Below are positions 1-6,706 of a stretch of DNA of 64,000 bases, piece after piece; within the stretch, counting starts at the first letter, position 1, and each line of letters opens with the position of its first letter. The position numbers were made by a program, and so were the translations under genes. The notes under the pieces are model-generated. The model was not told where the DNA came from, searched no databases, and saw nothing but the letters and a program-made list of their open reading frames with translations. This stretch comes from Trichodelitschia bisporula (taxonomy: Eukaryota), in contig ML996707.1 in the NCBI GenBank assembly GCA_010356995.1, positions 372,001-436,000 on the forward strand, written 5' to 3'.

Positions 1-106
1 CGTACATTCTCAAACGAATTATTTTCCTCCTCACCCCCAATATCCCCAATAACCCCAATACCCTCAACGCCCTCAGCACCCTCTCTCTTCTCCGTCTTCC
101 TTTACT

Positions 107-620
107 ATGGCTCCCAGTTTCTGGCAACAGCTGAAAAAGCAGGCCACCGGCCTCCGCGAAAAGACCGCTGCTTACGCTCTCACGAAGAAGGATAGTAGTA
201 AGATAAAGGCTGCCCCCCAGCCTCGCACCTCGCGGGATGCAACCGCCGGTATTCCTCGCCGGCACCAGAACGCGGACGCGTACGTGGCGGTCCTGGGCGA
301 CATCTGATATCCTGAAGGGTTGGATGATACTTATAACCCTGGTTGGGTATCATTTACTATTGTGCCCACGCGGCGCTGGAGCTGGGCTGGCTTCGAGTGT
401 ACCCGTGAGAACGATGCGGACTCCGAGTATAGCGATAGGGAATCCGAATTTTAAGGAAGTTGGAGCGATCGATGCGATGGAGAGGATCGAGGATATCCCA
501 TTCGGTAAGGTACCTTTGATGTCGAAGAAGCGATTGTTTTAGGGACTTAACTGCGGTAGGAGAGTGGGTTGAGATTAGCTGCAATGCTAACAACAATTAA
601 GAATCGAATATGGTCTAACT
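107..620 (+). pseudogene. Tandem-family copy 1 (premature stop and frameshift)
   Basis: The ORF 107..307 ends at TGA, but the same frame continues YPEGLDD...TRRWSWAGFECTRENDADSEYSDRESEF* to TAA 452-454, matching RRRSWAGFE in copy 4. A shifted frame then gives KEVGAIDAMERI, matching ELCAAIEAMKM in copy 3. Confidence 0.75.
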
Positions 621-1130
621 CGGATAGCTGCCATGCATCGCGTGATGTGAAGTGAACTAAACTGAAATAATTACCCCCACCTTGGTGATATGATGAGCCA
701 CAGATTGGCCTTGCGTACTGCTTAGGAAGGAACATGATCTATTGTGCGTATAGTGGGAGGAAGGGGTAGAGGAGGATACTTAGCATCTATCGTACATTTG
801 GACTCGAGAGTCTCTATTCTCTTCTATCTGCCCAGATTATGGGTTCGAGTAAGCACATAGCAGAATCGATACATCGAGACATTATCCGCCCTAGGTCATA
901 TTATTCGTTTCTGGGCGTTAGAACTTCACATTCATCAGGCTATACTTGAAGACTCACATCAGTGATGAACTTCCATCACGCCCATCAACTTCCAAACCTC
1001 ACGAAATCTCAACCGTTATCACAATCTCAAGGGCCTAGGAAGTATATATACACGCCGTCCATCCTCCAACGAATCTTGTTTTCCTCGCCAGTCCTCTCTA
1101 CACCCTATCTCCTCTCCTTCTTCCTTCAAA

Positions 1131-1316
1131 ATGGCTCCCCGCCTCTGGTCCCTGCTAAAAAGGCAAGCCGCCGGCCTGCGCGACGAGCTCCGCGAAAAGA
1201 TCGAAAAGCAAGCCGCTGGGCTCCGCAACGAGCTCCGCGACAAGCTCCCCACTCGCATTCTCACGAAGAAGGGCCGTGGTAAGATGCCTAGGCTTGCGAA
1301 GACGCGGTCGGTTTAG
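1131..1316 (+). CDS. Tandem-family copy 2, truncated (N-terminal module only, 45-nt internal duplication)
   Basis: MAPRLWSLLKRQAAGLRDELREKIEKQAAGLRNELRDKL. It lacks the RxxSWAG and acidic region. GTAAGA at 1279 is a possible splice donor. Confidence 0.6.
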   Translation: MAPRLWSLLKRQAAGLRDELREKIEKQAAGLRNELRDKLPTRILTKKGRGKMPRLAKTRSV

Positions 1317-2064
1317 GAGTTTAGCTGCGACGGGGTGTTTGATCTGGGGCCTTTTTGCGATACCGACTTGGAGTTAGGCGTTTTTGGGTTGGTGATAGAA
1401 ATCTAGAAATTGAAATTAGTCCGATGAAGATAGCAACCATGTGGAAGTGAAATGAAATGATTACCACTAACTTAGAATATGAAGGGAGAGGAGAGGAGCA
1501 AAGGATATTAGTATCGTACATCTTGACTCAAGAGTCTCTACTCTTTTTTGTCCGCCCAGATTGTAGGCTCGAGTAAGCGCGTGTCGGCTCTGGAAAATCG
1601 AGACGTTATCCGGTTGAACTCATTTCCTTAATATACACATTCTTCGTCAATAGGCGTCAGTCTTCCACTAGGTGGAGGCGCCCGCCTTGTGGACAGTCAA
1701 AGACTTCATACATATGAAAGACGTGTTGAAGACATCGTACGCTTCAAAGAGTAAGCGTTGAAGGCTTTCACTACGTTCCTCTGCGAGCGTTCCTCTCAAG
1801 CGTCTCTACGAGCGTCTTGCTAGAGCGTAGTGAGCGGTGGCATATTGAAAAGTGTGAGGATACTCGCCAGACTCCACCAAAAGGCCCAGCATTAGTGATG
1901 AACATCCATCACGTCCATCCCCTCCCAACCCTCAAACCCCCTCACAATCCCGCAGGCCTAGGAAGTTTTAAATAGCGCCGTACGTCCTCCAGCGAATTCT
2001 TCCACCACCACCTCTCTATACCCTCTCTCCTTTCCTTCTTCCTTCTTCTCCTTCTTCCATCAGA

Positions 2065-2538
2065 ATGGCCCCAAACCGCTGGAACTCGCTAAAAAAGCGA
2101 GCCACCGAGCTCGGTTCGAAGCTCGCCGTTCACACTCACATAAAGAAGGAAAGTAGTAAGAAGAAGAGCACCCCTCGGCCTGTCTCCAAGATCTATGAGT
2201 GGGACGTGACCGCAATGATGTGGCGCCGGATCAAACCTCTTAACCCCGACTGCGCCGTCCAGAGGGATTTCAGGGAACCCGAGCGGGTGTCTACGGCCGA
2301 CCCCGTCCAGAGGTCCTTTAGGAAACCCGAGCGCGCGTCCACGGCCGTCAACGATGCGGAACACGAGCCCATAGACACGCCCCCGCCCTCGCCCGAGCGG
2401 CACAGATCCTGGGCCGGCCAGTCGAATCCATCCGAACATCCCTCCGCAGACTCCGACTACTCAGAACTCTGCGCGGCCATAGAGGCGATGAAGATGATGA
2501 AGACCCCCTCTGAAGAAGCCGCCGAAGACTCCGACTAA
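2065..2538 (+). CDS. Tandem-family copy 3, 157-aa orphan protein
   Basis: MAPNRWNSLKKRATELGSKL..., with a 48-nt internal duplication (VQRDFREPERVSTA / VQRSFRKPERASTA), an RHRSWAG motif and an acidic tail. The TAA stop lies in the second copy of a duplicated GACTCCGACTAM segment. Confidence 0.7.
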   Translation: MAPNRWNSLKKRATELGSKLAVHTHIKKESSKKKSTPRPVSKIYEWDVTAMMWRRIKPLNPDCAVQRDFREPERVSTADPVQRSFRKPERASTAVNDAEHEPIDTPPPSPERHRSWAGQSNPSEHPSADSDYSELCAAIEAMKMMKTPSEEAAEDSD

Positions 2539-3295
2539 GAGGAACTGGCGGGGGCTATAGAGGCGATGGACACGATCGGGGGTAGGCGGTACCGTAAACA
2601 GCCCCCGGGCTATCGCAGAGGCGATCGGTTTAGGGAGTTGATTTTCTACGGTAGTAGAGGGGGTTGAGATTATGTAGTAATGCTGACTGGAATCAGGAAT
2701 TGGATATGGTTTAACTTTGGATAGATGCCATGTATCGCGTGAAGTTAAGTGAACTGATGTGCGCATGATGGGAGAAAGGGGAATAGGTGAGGATACTTAG
2801 CATTGTTGTGATTAGACCCGAGGGTCTCTACTCTCTTCTTTTCTTGCCTTCATCTCAATCTTCGCTTAACACAAGTCGCCCATTGCCCGTGTCAAGCCTT
2901 GCTCCCATTTCGTTTCGTTCGGCGCCGTAGCAAGCAAGGCTGACTTTCGTTCATCCGCCCAGATTCCGGGCTCGAGTAAGCGCATGACAGGCTCAGTACA
3001 TCGAGATGTTGTCCGATCTATGTCGCGTTCTCCGTTAATACGCATTCTGCGTCAATAGGCGTTGGACTTCCATACTCACCAAGCCGCACCAGAATCTCAG
3101 CACCAGTGATGAAGCCACATCACGTCCATCAGCTTCCAAACCTCACGAACCTTGAAGTTATATCACGTCCACCCCTTTCCAGCCCTCACACCCTCTAACC
3201 CCCCTCACAACACCAGATTCCCTAGATCCATATAACGCCCCCCCACCCACCCCCTCATCTCCCCCCCCAAACCCCCAAACCTCTCCTCTTCAAGA

Positions 3296-3834
3296 ATGGC
3301 TCCTTCGCTGTGGTCCTTCTTAAAGAAGCGCGCCTCCGGGCTCCGCTGCAAGCTGACCTCGCGCAAGCTCACCGGGCGCAAGTTCTCCCTCCGCCGCAAG
3401 AGAAAGTCCCCCCCTCATCCCACCCCCTCCCGCCTTGGCTCCTGGGACTCGATAATTTCGGGCGCCCACCACCGGCGCTACGACCCTGCTCATCCGGATC
3501 GCAACACGCACTTATGGGATGTAGAAGAAGATACTGGGAGGCTGCACGAGCCGGATTGGAAGTTCGTGGTGCCGCGCGAGGAGCGGAATGAGTACACGCG
3601 GCGGAGATCCTGGGCCGGGTTTGAGCTTGTCGATGAGGTGAAGTCGAGCGAGTCTGGTGAGAGTTTTGAGGAGATTGGGGCTGAGGAGGGGGATGAGGCT
3701 GTCAGTATGGAACTCGCGAGGGCGTGGACGAGATAGGGGTTTGGTCTGATGGGGAAGAACAGTTTGAAACCTGGAGTACTTGGAGTTGGGGTACGGGCTT
3801 TTGGGACTAATGATAGGAATTGGAATTGAACTGA
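3296..3834 (+). CDS. Tandem-family copy 4, apparently intact orphan protein (unspliced ORF ends 3736; predicted intron 3701-3816 gives a C-terminus ELELN*)
   Basis: MAPSLWSFLKKRASGLRCKL...RRRSWAGFE...acidic tail. A phase-0 donor GTCAGT at 3701, branch site ACTAAT near 3806 and TAG at 3814-3816. Confidence 0.72.
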
Positions 3835-3857
3835 CTTGGCTAGCAACTGCATATATC

Positions 3858-3885
3858 GAAGTGAAGTGAAGTGAAGTGAAGTGAA
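3858..3885 (+). repeat. (GTGAA)5 microsatellite
   Basis: gaagtgaagtgaagtgaagtgaagtgaa. It is an expanded form of the gtgaagtgaac motif that follows copies 1-3. Confidence 0.9.
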
Positions 3886-4514
3886 CTGACTGCCGCTAAC
3901 TTACATAGTAGACAGAGATGCCTTAGATTAGCCCGCATACTATTTGTCCCTGCAGTGATCGGCACTGTCATTATGCGGCCCTTCTTTAGCGTCGAACGTA
4001 CCGGCGGCTAAAAGGTAGTGCATAGCTATCCGGCGACCTTTGACTTAGATATCGATCAGCTTAGCAGCACTCAACCGAGCCGTGGGAACGACCACTCACA
4101 TAGAACTCTGCCCAAGGAGCACACCAGTCGACACCCCCCCCTCATTCACCATCAGTACAACAAGCGGAAGAATACCTCATCCATTGACACGATTTTACAT
4201 ACCCGCCATCCCCTCATCTCATGCACACTCCAAAACACCGTATCCGTGCGTATATACCATAACCTCATAACCCTCATCCCCAGCCCATCGGCCCGCTCAT
4301 CTCAATCATCGTGGGTATCAAGAACCTTTGTCTCGGTCCAAACGTGCCCAGTAAGCCATCATGCCCCATATCCCATGCCAAGTTCTTCTCACTCACACTC
4401 CACAAGCTCTAGGCGTAAACAGGAGTAGGGAGCTCGCACAGCCACCCCCCATCGGCCCACAAGCATCATGCCGCAAAGAAACAGCACCAAAGAAAAAATG
4501 CCACCGAAAGTCGT

Positions 4515-6706
4515 CTACACCCCATCGGCCTTCTCGCCATCGACCTTCTCCCCATCAACCTTCTCATCCCCCCCACCCATCTCCTTAACACTCTCCTTAC
4601 TCGGACTAACAACCGCATCCAACGGCGCCGCATGAAGCGCCGGCTTCTCACTCCTCGCCAACCTACCACTCCGCCTCTTCTCAATCGCCTCAATCACCCA
4701 CTCCGCAACCTCCGCGTCAACGACATTGTGAGGCAAGAGCGGGTTGCGGGTAATAGGCTGAGCCTCGGAGTCAGCCGTAGGCAAGGCCGGGGACTCGTTT
4801 TCGTCCGATTCAGACCCGGGCTCGGGGGTCACTTCCTCGTCCTCGTCCTCCTCGACGATGGCACTCGGCTTCGCGAGCGACGTCAGCCACGGGTGCAGCA
4901 GCAGCATCGGGTACGTAGGGCGCAGCTTGGGCGTCTTGTTCAGGCAGGAGCGGACGAAGTGGCGCGCGGGTTCGGAGAAGGAGCCCACGGGGAGATCAGG
5001 CGGCTCGCCATCAACAATGGCCTAGTATGTCAGTCACGATCTCTCTCACAGTAGGTAAAACTGACACTCAGTTGGCTGAAGATGTTGTTGTACGTCTCCG
5101 GCGGGTACGGATACCGCCCCAGAGCGCACTCAATGATCGTCAACCCCAAGCTCCAAATATCGCTCTGCACGCTGTACGTGCCGTCGCCAAAGCTAGCACC
5201 GCCCATGCCGCCCGTCGAGATACGTTCCGGCGCCATGTAGCTCTGGCAGCCGATGTTTGTCTTGGCGAAGCTGGCGACGAGGTTGCCGCTGACGCCGAAG
5301 TCGCAGATCTTGATTTGGCCGCGCGTGTTCATGAGTATGTTCGTCGGCTTCACGTCGCGGTGGATAATGTTGTGATCCTCCTTGAGGCACTTGAGGCCCA
5401 TGGTCGTCGCGTAGGTAATCTTGCGCAGCACGTTCTCTGGGATCCCGTCGCCGTACAACTTGTCGATCGAGCCGCCGTCCATGAACTCCATGCAGATGTA
5501 CACCGCGCCTTCCTGGAAGAAGGCGCCGTAGAAGTCGACGATGTAAGGTGATATGCAGCGATGCAGCACGTCGAGTTCCATAATGATAGCGGCGAACTTG
5601 GCGTCATCGAGCTCAAGCCGAATCTCCTTCATGGCCATGATGGCCCCAGTGGTGCCTTCCGATTTAGGCGACTGCGAGTCATCACCGTCCCCAGAGGCTT
5701 TCCGCACAGGTCCCGACGGTGTGTGTCCGAACTGGGGTCGGTTGCCAGCCAAACCCATTCCCGGCCGCCGTATCTTTGGCCTGCTATGGCGCACCTTGTA
5801 GACAGTGCCGTAGTTGCCCTTGCCTAGCTCATCCATCGTGTCCACTTCATCAAGCGATATGCTGAAGCTGGTGCCGTTCGTGAACTGCACGCCCTGCGAG
5901 TTGAGCACGGCTTTGCCAGCGAAGCGCAAGCTGCCAGTCTTCGCATCCAGGTAGTCGGCGTACTTGTCCATCATGGTGCCGCCTGTGCCTCCATTCTTCT
6001 GCGGCTCCTGGTCCTTGTTCTCGCCGCCGCCTTGCATCTGCGACAGCGAGAGGCCAGGCTTTTTCCGCCCAACAGGCACGGGCGTCCCGTTCGGCGTTGC
6101 CCCAGGTAGACCACCAGGAAGCGCCAAACCACGCTTCTCCGCCAGCGACGGCTTGTTCCGCCCAAGGCGCATGTTCGGCACCGCAGGTGCCGAATGCAGA
6201 TTTTTGAGCGCCGGTGCGCCATTCGGAAGCTGCAGACTCAGAGAGCCCGGCATGCTACCAGGGCCGGATGGGGAGGTGGGGCTGGTGATGCCTCCCGTGG
6301 GACCGTGAGCAGGCAGATCGGACGCCAAACGAGCGGGATGCTGTGGAGGGCCCTGTCGTGAGAGACGCCAGGCTGATACGCGCGCCAGCAGCTCCGACGA
6401 TTGCCGGCTAACGGGCTCACCGCGGCTGCTTGCGAATGTGGATTGATTTGACGGGCGGCGTGCGGCCATGATATTACCGAGCGGTGTAGATGAAGTGGTC
6501 ATGCCTGCTGTGGTGGCTGTCGATTCGGAGACGGAACGGGGAGAGAGTGGGGGATGGGGTGGCTGGAGAGACGAGACGTTGGGAGGCGAGATGGGAGATG
6601 TGGGCGTTGGCGTCGAGGGAGCGGGTGATGAAGACATTGCGGCGGAATCGGTGGGGGGTTGTTCTGCGTCAGGTTCGGTGATGGCAGGAGGGGGATCGGT
6701 AGTCAT
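4515..6706 (-). CDS. PBS2: HOG-pathway MAP kinase kinase Pbs2/Wis1 (exons 6706-5066 and 5021-4515)
   Basis: Kinase motifs ELGKGNYGTV, AMKEIRLELD, HRDVKPTN, DFGVSGNLVASFAKTNIGCQSYMAPERI and DIWSLG, preceded by a long Pro/Ser-rich N-terminus. Intron GTCAGT...CTGAC...TAG at 5065-5022 joins FSQLS to AIVDGEPP. Typical C-terminal KPALHAAPLD. Confidence 0.96.

Follow-up and report, generated by a model that had tools for sequence, protein, structure and literature searches.

Near the left edge of a 64,000-nt stretch of the genome of Trichodelitschia bisporula (contig C21, positions 372001-436000, of a 25.8-Mb assembly; this stretch is referred to here as the window) lies a tandem array of short open reading frames (ORFs). 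We consider it probable that this array represents a lineage-restricted gene family of eight tandem units, kept in frame by purifying selection and now losing copies, with an adaptor-type product. That the array is, or at some time was, a real gene family can be held with considerable confidence; the targeting and adaptor mechanism proposed below is put forward tentatively. T. bisporula is classed as a Dothideomycete (Phaeotrichales) and is presented in PMC7082219 as a dung saprobe. An earlier note, made from the letters of the window, had described four head-to-tail units with related N-termini within positions 1-3900. These four units are real, with starts at 107 (U1), 1131 (U2), 2065 (U3) and 3296 (U4), and they align (they are also called copies 1 to 4), but they are the right-hand half of a larger array. 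The 20 kb of contig upstream of the window contain four further units, starting at C21 positions 366577 (U-4), 367874 (U-3), 369145 (U-2) and 370336 (U-1) and spanning L036:4577-8656 (C21:366577-370656), which makes eight head-to-tail units over about 9.6 kb. The N-terminal helix motif W-x2-L-K-K/R-x-x-x-x-L is common to seven of them. The outermost unit, U-4, is homologous in its flanks only, its ORF having no detectable homology, and it was excluded from all selection tests. A degenerate pattern derived from the starts of these copies matched three of the four window starts and nothing in 100 shuffles; genome-wide it occurs at five places, all within the array, and its reversed control at none. 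Matches of at least 100 nt exist for 20 of the 28 unit pairs and never exceed 79% identity, and therefore the array has not expanded recently.

Why should such short ORFs be regarded as genes? The N-terminal 18 codons of the seven recognisable copies, aligned without gaps, contain no stop and give a ratio of non-synonymous to synonymous change (dN/dS, omega) of 0.37 in the ORF frame, compared with 0.75-2.20 in the five other frames; every one of the six frames of a non-coding control also lies above this value (0.66-1.89), and permutation of the alignment columns gave p = 0.016. The earlier note had regarded a dN/dS near 1 in this block, combined with a lack of transcription, as telling against its proposal, and the measured value is below 1. 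A protein-guided alignment, which is biased by its guide, gave 0.30 for the N-terminus and 0.47 for the rest. Constraint is also seen in the frame itself. The RxxSW block is in frame in all five long copies, at 474, 222, 258, 327 and 297 nt from the start (a chance of about 1 in 81 by our own arithmetic); this count omits U2, U-3 and U-4, where there is no clear match, and includes U-1, which was missed by a 33-nt probe and placed by a 24-nt probe limited to positions over 100 nt beyond the start. Well-flanked gaps come in multiples of three in 7 of 10 cases within the ORFs and in 16 of 86 in the flanks. Neutral decay of seven copies, simulated at one third of the flank divergence, predicts about 4 stops and 16 frameshifts, against 3 stops and 1 frameshift counted in the alignable blocks. 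Several points weigh on the other side. The N-terminal block was picked for its conservation, the excess of third-position changes taken alone is not significant (p = 0.094), and the likelihood test is too generous, since two of six control frames came out nominally significant, though with omega above 1. Gaps counted pair by pair are not independent of one another, errors in the alignment may have raised the indel rate used in the simulation, the middles of the ORFs cannot be aligned and could hide frame changes, and the N-terminal DNA is conserved less (0.68) than the relic of a long terminal repeat (LTR) that lies in the spacers (0.79). On sequence evidence, these measures point to purifying selection of moderate strength during most of the family's history, with later loss of several copies, and the local birth-and-death that the earlier note had suggested is supported.

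A stop, a lost start, a frameshift or a large deletion affects five of the seven recognisable copies (Table 1). The strongly diverging middles described before are evident on alignment, and the RxxSWAG block and acidic tail that were thought to persist in copies 1, 3 and 4 are both present in copy 4, which is intact. In copy 1, by contrast, an in-frame TGA at 305-307 (codon 67) precedes RRWSWAG and the acidic stretch, and the shared C-terminal block sits in another frame. Copy 2 has its helix segment duplicated (45-nt spacing) and its middle removed in frame, and retains the shared C-terminal block. Copy 3, a singleton in the protein collection, carries two internal duplications (48- and 78-nt spacing), one of which has preserved part of the C-terminal block; its TAA at 2536-2538 comes ahead of that block, a remnant of which continues in frame, and this copy is probably truncated. 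The best candidates for genes that still work would be copies 4 and U-3. The exact sequence of copy 4 is absent from the protein collection. The public model KAF2396427.1 (79 aa) joins the first 30 codons of copy 1 to copy 2 (window 107-197 + 1168-1316) across a 970-nt intron (198-1167) with an AAG acceptor, and is probably a gene-prediction artefact. In several units (window 501-620, 1275-1400 and upstream copies) a GTAAG-like word is followed, about 80-95 nt on, by a CTAAC-like word and AG. A 3′ intron read by eye from such words (GTAAG in the FGK block, with CTAAC and AG some 95 nt further along) was set aside because the spliced frames would end differently in each copy and the unspliced stop is common to three.

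The spacers bear on how the array grew. Conserved non-coding blocks had been noticed between units and taken as shared cis-elements. The blocks are indeed shared, but those at 719-825, 1477-1548 and 2735-2910 come from a solo LTR that is dispersed in the genome. When window positions 1-3900 were compared with the genome, 46 matches were obtained: 8 within the array, 1 to a private insertion and 37 to one dispersed element, the latter all falling within 716-829 or 2741-2915. Solo LTRs are defined by TG...CA-type ends and a 4-5-bp target-site duplication. Aligned copies of the dispersed element are 200-230 bp long with TG...CA-type ends, and an exact 5-bp flanking copy was found for 7 of 34 pieces, and for 5 of the 26 with good ends, versus none of 650 mismatched pairs (boundaries being free to shift by 4 bases). 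By these sequence features, which are those of fungal solo LTRs, the element is a solo LTR, and its target-site copies speak for this identity and against a class of promoter. Its family has at least 41 matches genome-wide, from the best 40 of 139 candidates (e.g. L023, L026, L029, L030 and L037), and nhmmer finds pieces of it in six of the eight array spacers. No parent element with gag-pol between two such LTRs was found; one LTR pair 4 kb apart, the one pair examined, encloses a long ORF that by eye resembles an ordinary gene. Within the array, the left junction of the LTR (U-2, U-1), its right junction (U3) and an empty site (U-3) align on a single 5-bp target, and a later loss of the 3′ part of the LTR is common to U-2, U-1, U1 and U2, which group together (89/96) in a tree that is weakly resolved and leaves the U3 piece unplaced. 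The aligned junctions, the empty site and the shared deletion therefore indicate that one LTR entered the array after the first duplications, and this insertion marks one sub-lineage of units. The LTR of U-4 is a separate insertion at a different position, and U4 has no LTR hit. Identity of the LTR core is 0.81 within the array, 0.77 between the array and dispersed copies and 0.79 among dispersed copies; because these values are similar, the array duplications appear to be about as old as the spread of the LTR family.

The likeness of the other shared blocks need not reflect regulatory function. Across five units, identity is 0.79 in the LTR core, 0.76 in the promoter block, 0.75 in the block after the LTR, 0.72 in the 3′ block and 0.68 in the N-terminal coding DNA. 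Since the non-coding blocks other than the LTR (0.72-0.76) are no more alike than the LTR core, their likeness requires no selection, though they do resemble a promoter and the core could itself be constrained. The functional meaning given earlier to the shared cis-elements is thus not borne out. Upstream of the ORFs, A occupies position -3 in seven of eight units, a pyrimidine-rich leader is found in all eight, and a TATA-like word, loosely defined, in each. There is no signature of repeat-induced point mutation in the array, with indices of 0.78 and 1.17 compared with 0.69 and 1.23 in the remaining window.

No known family was matched, in agreement with the earlier note, which did not recognise one. 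That note had considered that a match either to a known family or to a transposon fragment would count against a new family; none of the former was obtained, and a transposable-element fragment was found, in spacer only. Genome searches by protein, pattern and DNA, in which the best candidates were scored, place the family at the array only. None of five phmmer candidates obtained with copy 4 was homologous, a profile search returned two of 8000 candidates, both from the array itself, and a profile run against 1.84 billion representatives gave three hits, all from the same contig; no sister-species genome was among the sequences searched. None of 147 pattern matches to copy 3 in metagenome contigs was confirmed. 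None of the array proteins reached the curated cut-off of any Pfam family, and 10 kb of the array searched against Rfam gave nothing up to E = 1. In the ESM Atlas, copy 4 reached a best feature score of 0.80 (recognition 1520), a lead only, and copy 3 had no usable hit or TM score above 0.36. A match to copy 4 on contig C12 (E 0.002) was rejected, as it falls on the strand opposite to an ordinary long ORF. No RNA data set was listed as containing the array words; two contig-only runs from a single study, of guessed type, contain 0.58 and 0.27 of them and give no evidence either way. Titles and opening abstract lines of the papers listed on the genus, tandem orphan families, wtf, rfk-1 and Dothideomycete editing do not describe the family.

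What could such proteins do? Net charge ranges from +1 to +5 in residues 1-20 and from +2 to +9 in residues 21-45, and the last 40 residues carry -8 or -9 in U-3, U3 and U4. The AlphaFold2 model of copy 4 has one helix, residues 3-20, and no structure in the rest. The cationic amphipathic N-terminal helix proposed earlier thus survives as a predicted basic helix under some constraint, but its hydrophobic moment exceeds that of shuffles at p<0.05 in only two of eight units (U-3 and U-2), with p = 0.23, 0.05, 0.057 and 0.53 in copies 1 to 4. Its likeness to a presequence is not supported. The first 20 residues of a mitochondrial presequence are typically Arg-rich, acid-free and amphipathic, and here acidic residues occur within the first 20 in seven of eight units, Lys is at least as common as Arg in seven of eight, and the moment is seldom significant. 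Precursors of secreted or membrane-active peptides have a hydrophobic signal core or a cysteine scaffold, neither of which is seen here, the best 8-residue hydropathy being 0.0-1.3 and the number of Cys 0-2. Hydrophobic or membrane segments are lacking in all eight units (maximum 19-residue Kyte-Doolittle value, KD19, at most 0.79), and the PY motif is found in none of them. A pattern resembling a bipartite nuclear localisation signal is present in four of eight units. Two features speak against the favoured explanation at this point: by strict pattern that signal is missing from the other four, and the AlphaFold2 model, built from seven sequences, has a predicted TM score (pTM) of 0.16.

A mechanism can be outlined from these features. 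One gene would have been multiplied in place by unequal crossing-over, giving eight head-to-tail units, the outer copies of which lie outside the LTR-marked lineage; purifying selection would have held the frame for most of this history, and copies would now be lost by birth-and-death. The product may be a small protein, disordered for the most part and without enzymatic activity, that acts as a regulator or adaptor and is targeted by its basic N-terminal helix and the Lys/Arg cluster that follows. The nucleus is the most likely target, though we would stop short of calling it probable; an anionic membrane is a possible second, and the mitochondrion a doubtful one. The RxxS(W) block might serve as a site for a basophilic kinase, as we presume from the RxxS motif, or as a short binding motif, and the acidic tail might bind a basic partner.

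The convergent kinase gene that follows the array (Table 1) is, by likeness, presumably a MAP kinase kinase (MAPKK) of Pbs2 type. Directly upstream of the array lies a large gene (L035:9285 to L036:4028), whose C-terminal part contains a 345-bp internal tandem repeat and three scanned pieces of which matched no Pfam family above cut-off. The insertion that separates U-1 from copy 1 (L036:8820-9510) has no Pfam match. It includes a self-inverted segment of 256 bp (84%), another LTR copy that has diverged further, and a piece of 150 bp for which two matches lie elsewhere.

Table 1. Features of the array and its surroundings (positions in the window unless preceded by L036)
Feature	Position	Strand	Remarks
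U-4	L036:4577-5188		open, 203 aa
U-3	L036:5874-6266		open, 130 aa; KAF2396426.1; empty LTR site; without the shared C-terminal block
U-2	L036:7145-7786		213 open codons; GTG replaces ATG
U-1	L036:8336-8656		TAG at codon 47, opposite TGG of copy 3
End of copy 1 promoter-like block	1..106	+	array runs on upstream
Copy 1 (U1), broken	107..542	+	66-aa ORF 107-307; in-frame remnant to 454; shared C-terminal block to 542
Shared 3′ block, GTGAA-rich	599..660	+	probable 3′ untranslated region (putative role)
Solo-LTR fragment	719..825	+	nhmmer E 3.8e-22, model positions 47-155 of 227
Shared spacer block after LTR	830..895	+	
Promoter-like block of copy 2	962..1130	+	TATA-like word 88 nt before ATG, pyrimidine-rich leader; putative role
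Copy 2 (U2)	1131..1316	+	61 aa; internal deletion product
Solo-LTR fragment	1477..1548	+	nhmmer E 2.2e-4; clusters with U-2, U-1 and U1 fragments, support 89/96
Insertion private to copy 2 spacer	1666..1817	.	one 69% genome match, on contig C5
Copy 3 (U3)	2065..2538	+	157-aa ORF
Solo-LTR fragment	2735..2915	+	nhmmer E 5.8e-30; junctions; 3′ end at 2910, 5-bp target-site copy 2911-2915
Promoter-like block of copy 4	3105..3295	+	putative role
Copy 4 (U4), intact	3296..3736	+	146-aa ORF; helix 3-20, RRKRK cluster, RRRSWAG, acidic tail
Copy 4 shared 3′ block	3815..3895	+	array end
Protein-kinase gene	4515..6706	-	convergent with array; Pfam Pkinase E 4.4e-46

Among other explanations, the one closest to ours is that the family was once functional but is by now dead, or on its way there, throughout the array, its intact copies being recent survivors without a current role. 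The five damaged copies, the lack of the shared C-terminal block in U-3 and the lack of recent births (no pair above 79% identity over at least 100 nt) all fit this reading. It is nevertheless improbable, because under neutrality copy 4 would stay intact with a chance of only 0.05 for a branch of 0.05, falling to 0.003 for one of 0.10, and because U-2 retains its long open frame. It is very unlikely that the shared DNA is a non-coding repeat, acting as RNA or in regulation, with incidental ORFs. Such a repeat would account for non-coding blocks being conserved as well as or better than the coding block, and an RTGATGA word in the upstream block resembles what we take to be box C of small nucleolar RNAs (snoRNAs), but the Rfam search of the array was negative, the constraint is frame-specific and the indels keep the frame. 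Less probable still is that each unit is a non-autonomous LTR element, such as a tandem-array TRIM (terminal-repeat retrotransposon in miniature) of LTR-internal-LTR structure, with the ORF as cargo or chance frame. Although six of the eight spacers contain LTR pieces, the empty site in U-3 largely refutes this reading. With no LTR hit after U4, not all units are LTR-bounded; the LTR lies within the spacer, next to a 5-bp target-site copy of its own, and that of U-4 lies elsewhere in the unit. Apart from one 150-bp insertion, the rest of window 1-3900 has no other genome matches, and no gag or pol family was matched.

The earlier note had seen here the pattern of conflict genes (meiotic drivers, toxin-antidote or incompatibility loci) or of stage-specific genes. 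As a conflict locus, the array would be a spore-killer or incompatibility family whose small basic proteins poison membrane or nucleus and whose paralogues act as antidotes or suppressors. Rapid divergence, multiple copies, abundant pseudogenes and solo LTRs close by also characterise the wtf drivers of Schizosaccharomyces pombe as described in PMC11497594. The wtf proteins, however, are there described as multi-transmembrane, with two isoforms, PY motifs and gene conversion, whereas the array proteins have no membrane segment and no PY motif in any of the eight units, no recognisable two-part layout, no near-identical pair and no Pfam match above the curated cut-off. The array is a single locus with no dispersed copy, omega is below 1 in the alignable blocks where it can be measured, and the main LTR is a single insertion, later than the first duplications, from a family scattered genome-wide. 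A second parallel is rfk-1 of Neurospora Sk-2, a known small killer (102/130 aa) reported to have an early UAG that is bypassed by adenosine-to-inosine (A-to-I) editing, which recalls the TAG of U-1. Compared by description, such a stop is found here in only one of seven copies, the remaining lesions (TGA, TAA, GTG, frameshift, deletion) do not fit an editing switch, and no antidote gene was identified. A conflict locus is therefore quite unlikely. Its most specific form, an undescribed spore-killer or incompatibility system of a Dothideomycete in which small disordered proteins, taken by their basic helix to the nucleus or a membrane, are the poisons, the helix-only copies 1, 2 and U-1 are dominant-negative antidotes and the TAG of U-1 is an editing switch, is a long shot. 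According to the parts of PMC10041177 available to us, fungal editing is placed in Sordariomycetes and one Pezizomycete and not in Dothideomycetes; if the switch were real, A-to-I editing would be extended to a class for which reports are lacking there, and if killing were real, a new kind of fungal driver, made from a short disordered protein, would be added.

A gene family that is kept in frame and is losing copies places the array instead among the taxonomically restricted (orphan) small-gene families of filamentous ascomycetes, which evolve through local duplication and loss and with which it shares the lack of homologues and domains, short ORFs, and tandem copies accompanied by pseudogenes. 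It differs from them in that its sequence matches nothing and the protein collection lacks U4, its best copy. In the account of PMC7082219, newly sequenced Dothideomycetes have about 1,950 unique gene clusters each, a Pfam domain is found in 8.6% of unique genes, and the average unique gene has 394 codons, longer than the array product. As far as sequence can tell, the family is novel in sequence but conceptually ordinary, old and partly decayed. The array has a value for annotation, since its best copy is missing from the protein collection and KAF2396427.1 joins two broken copies. It also serves as a small and clear example of an orphan family that carries its own clock, in which the order of the duplications can be read from an LTR insertion and a deletion that followed it. 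In a class where species-unique genes are common, it may thus inform how orphan families arise and decay.

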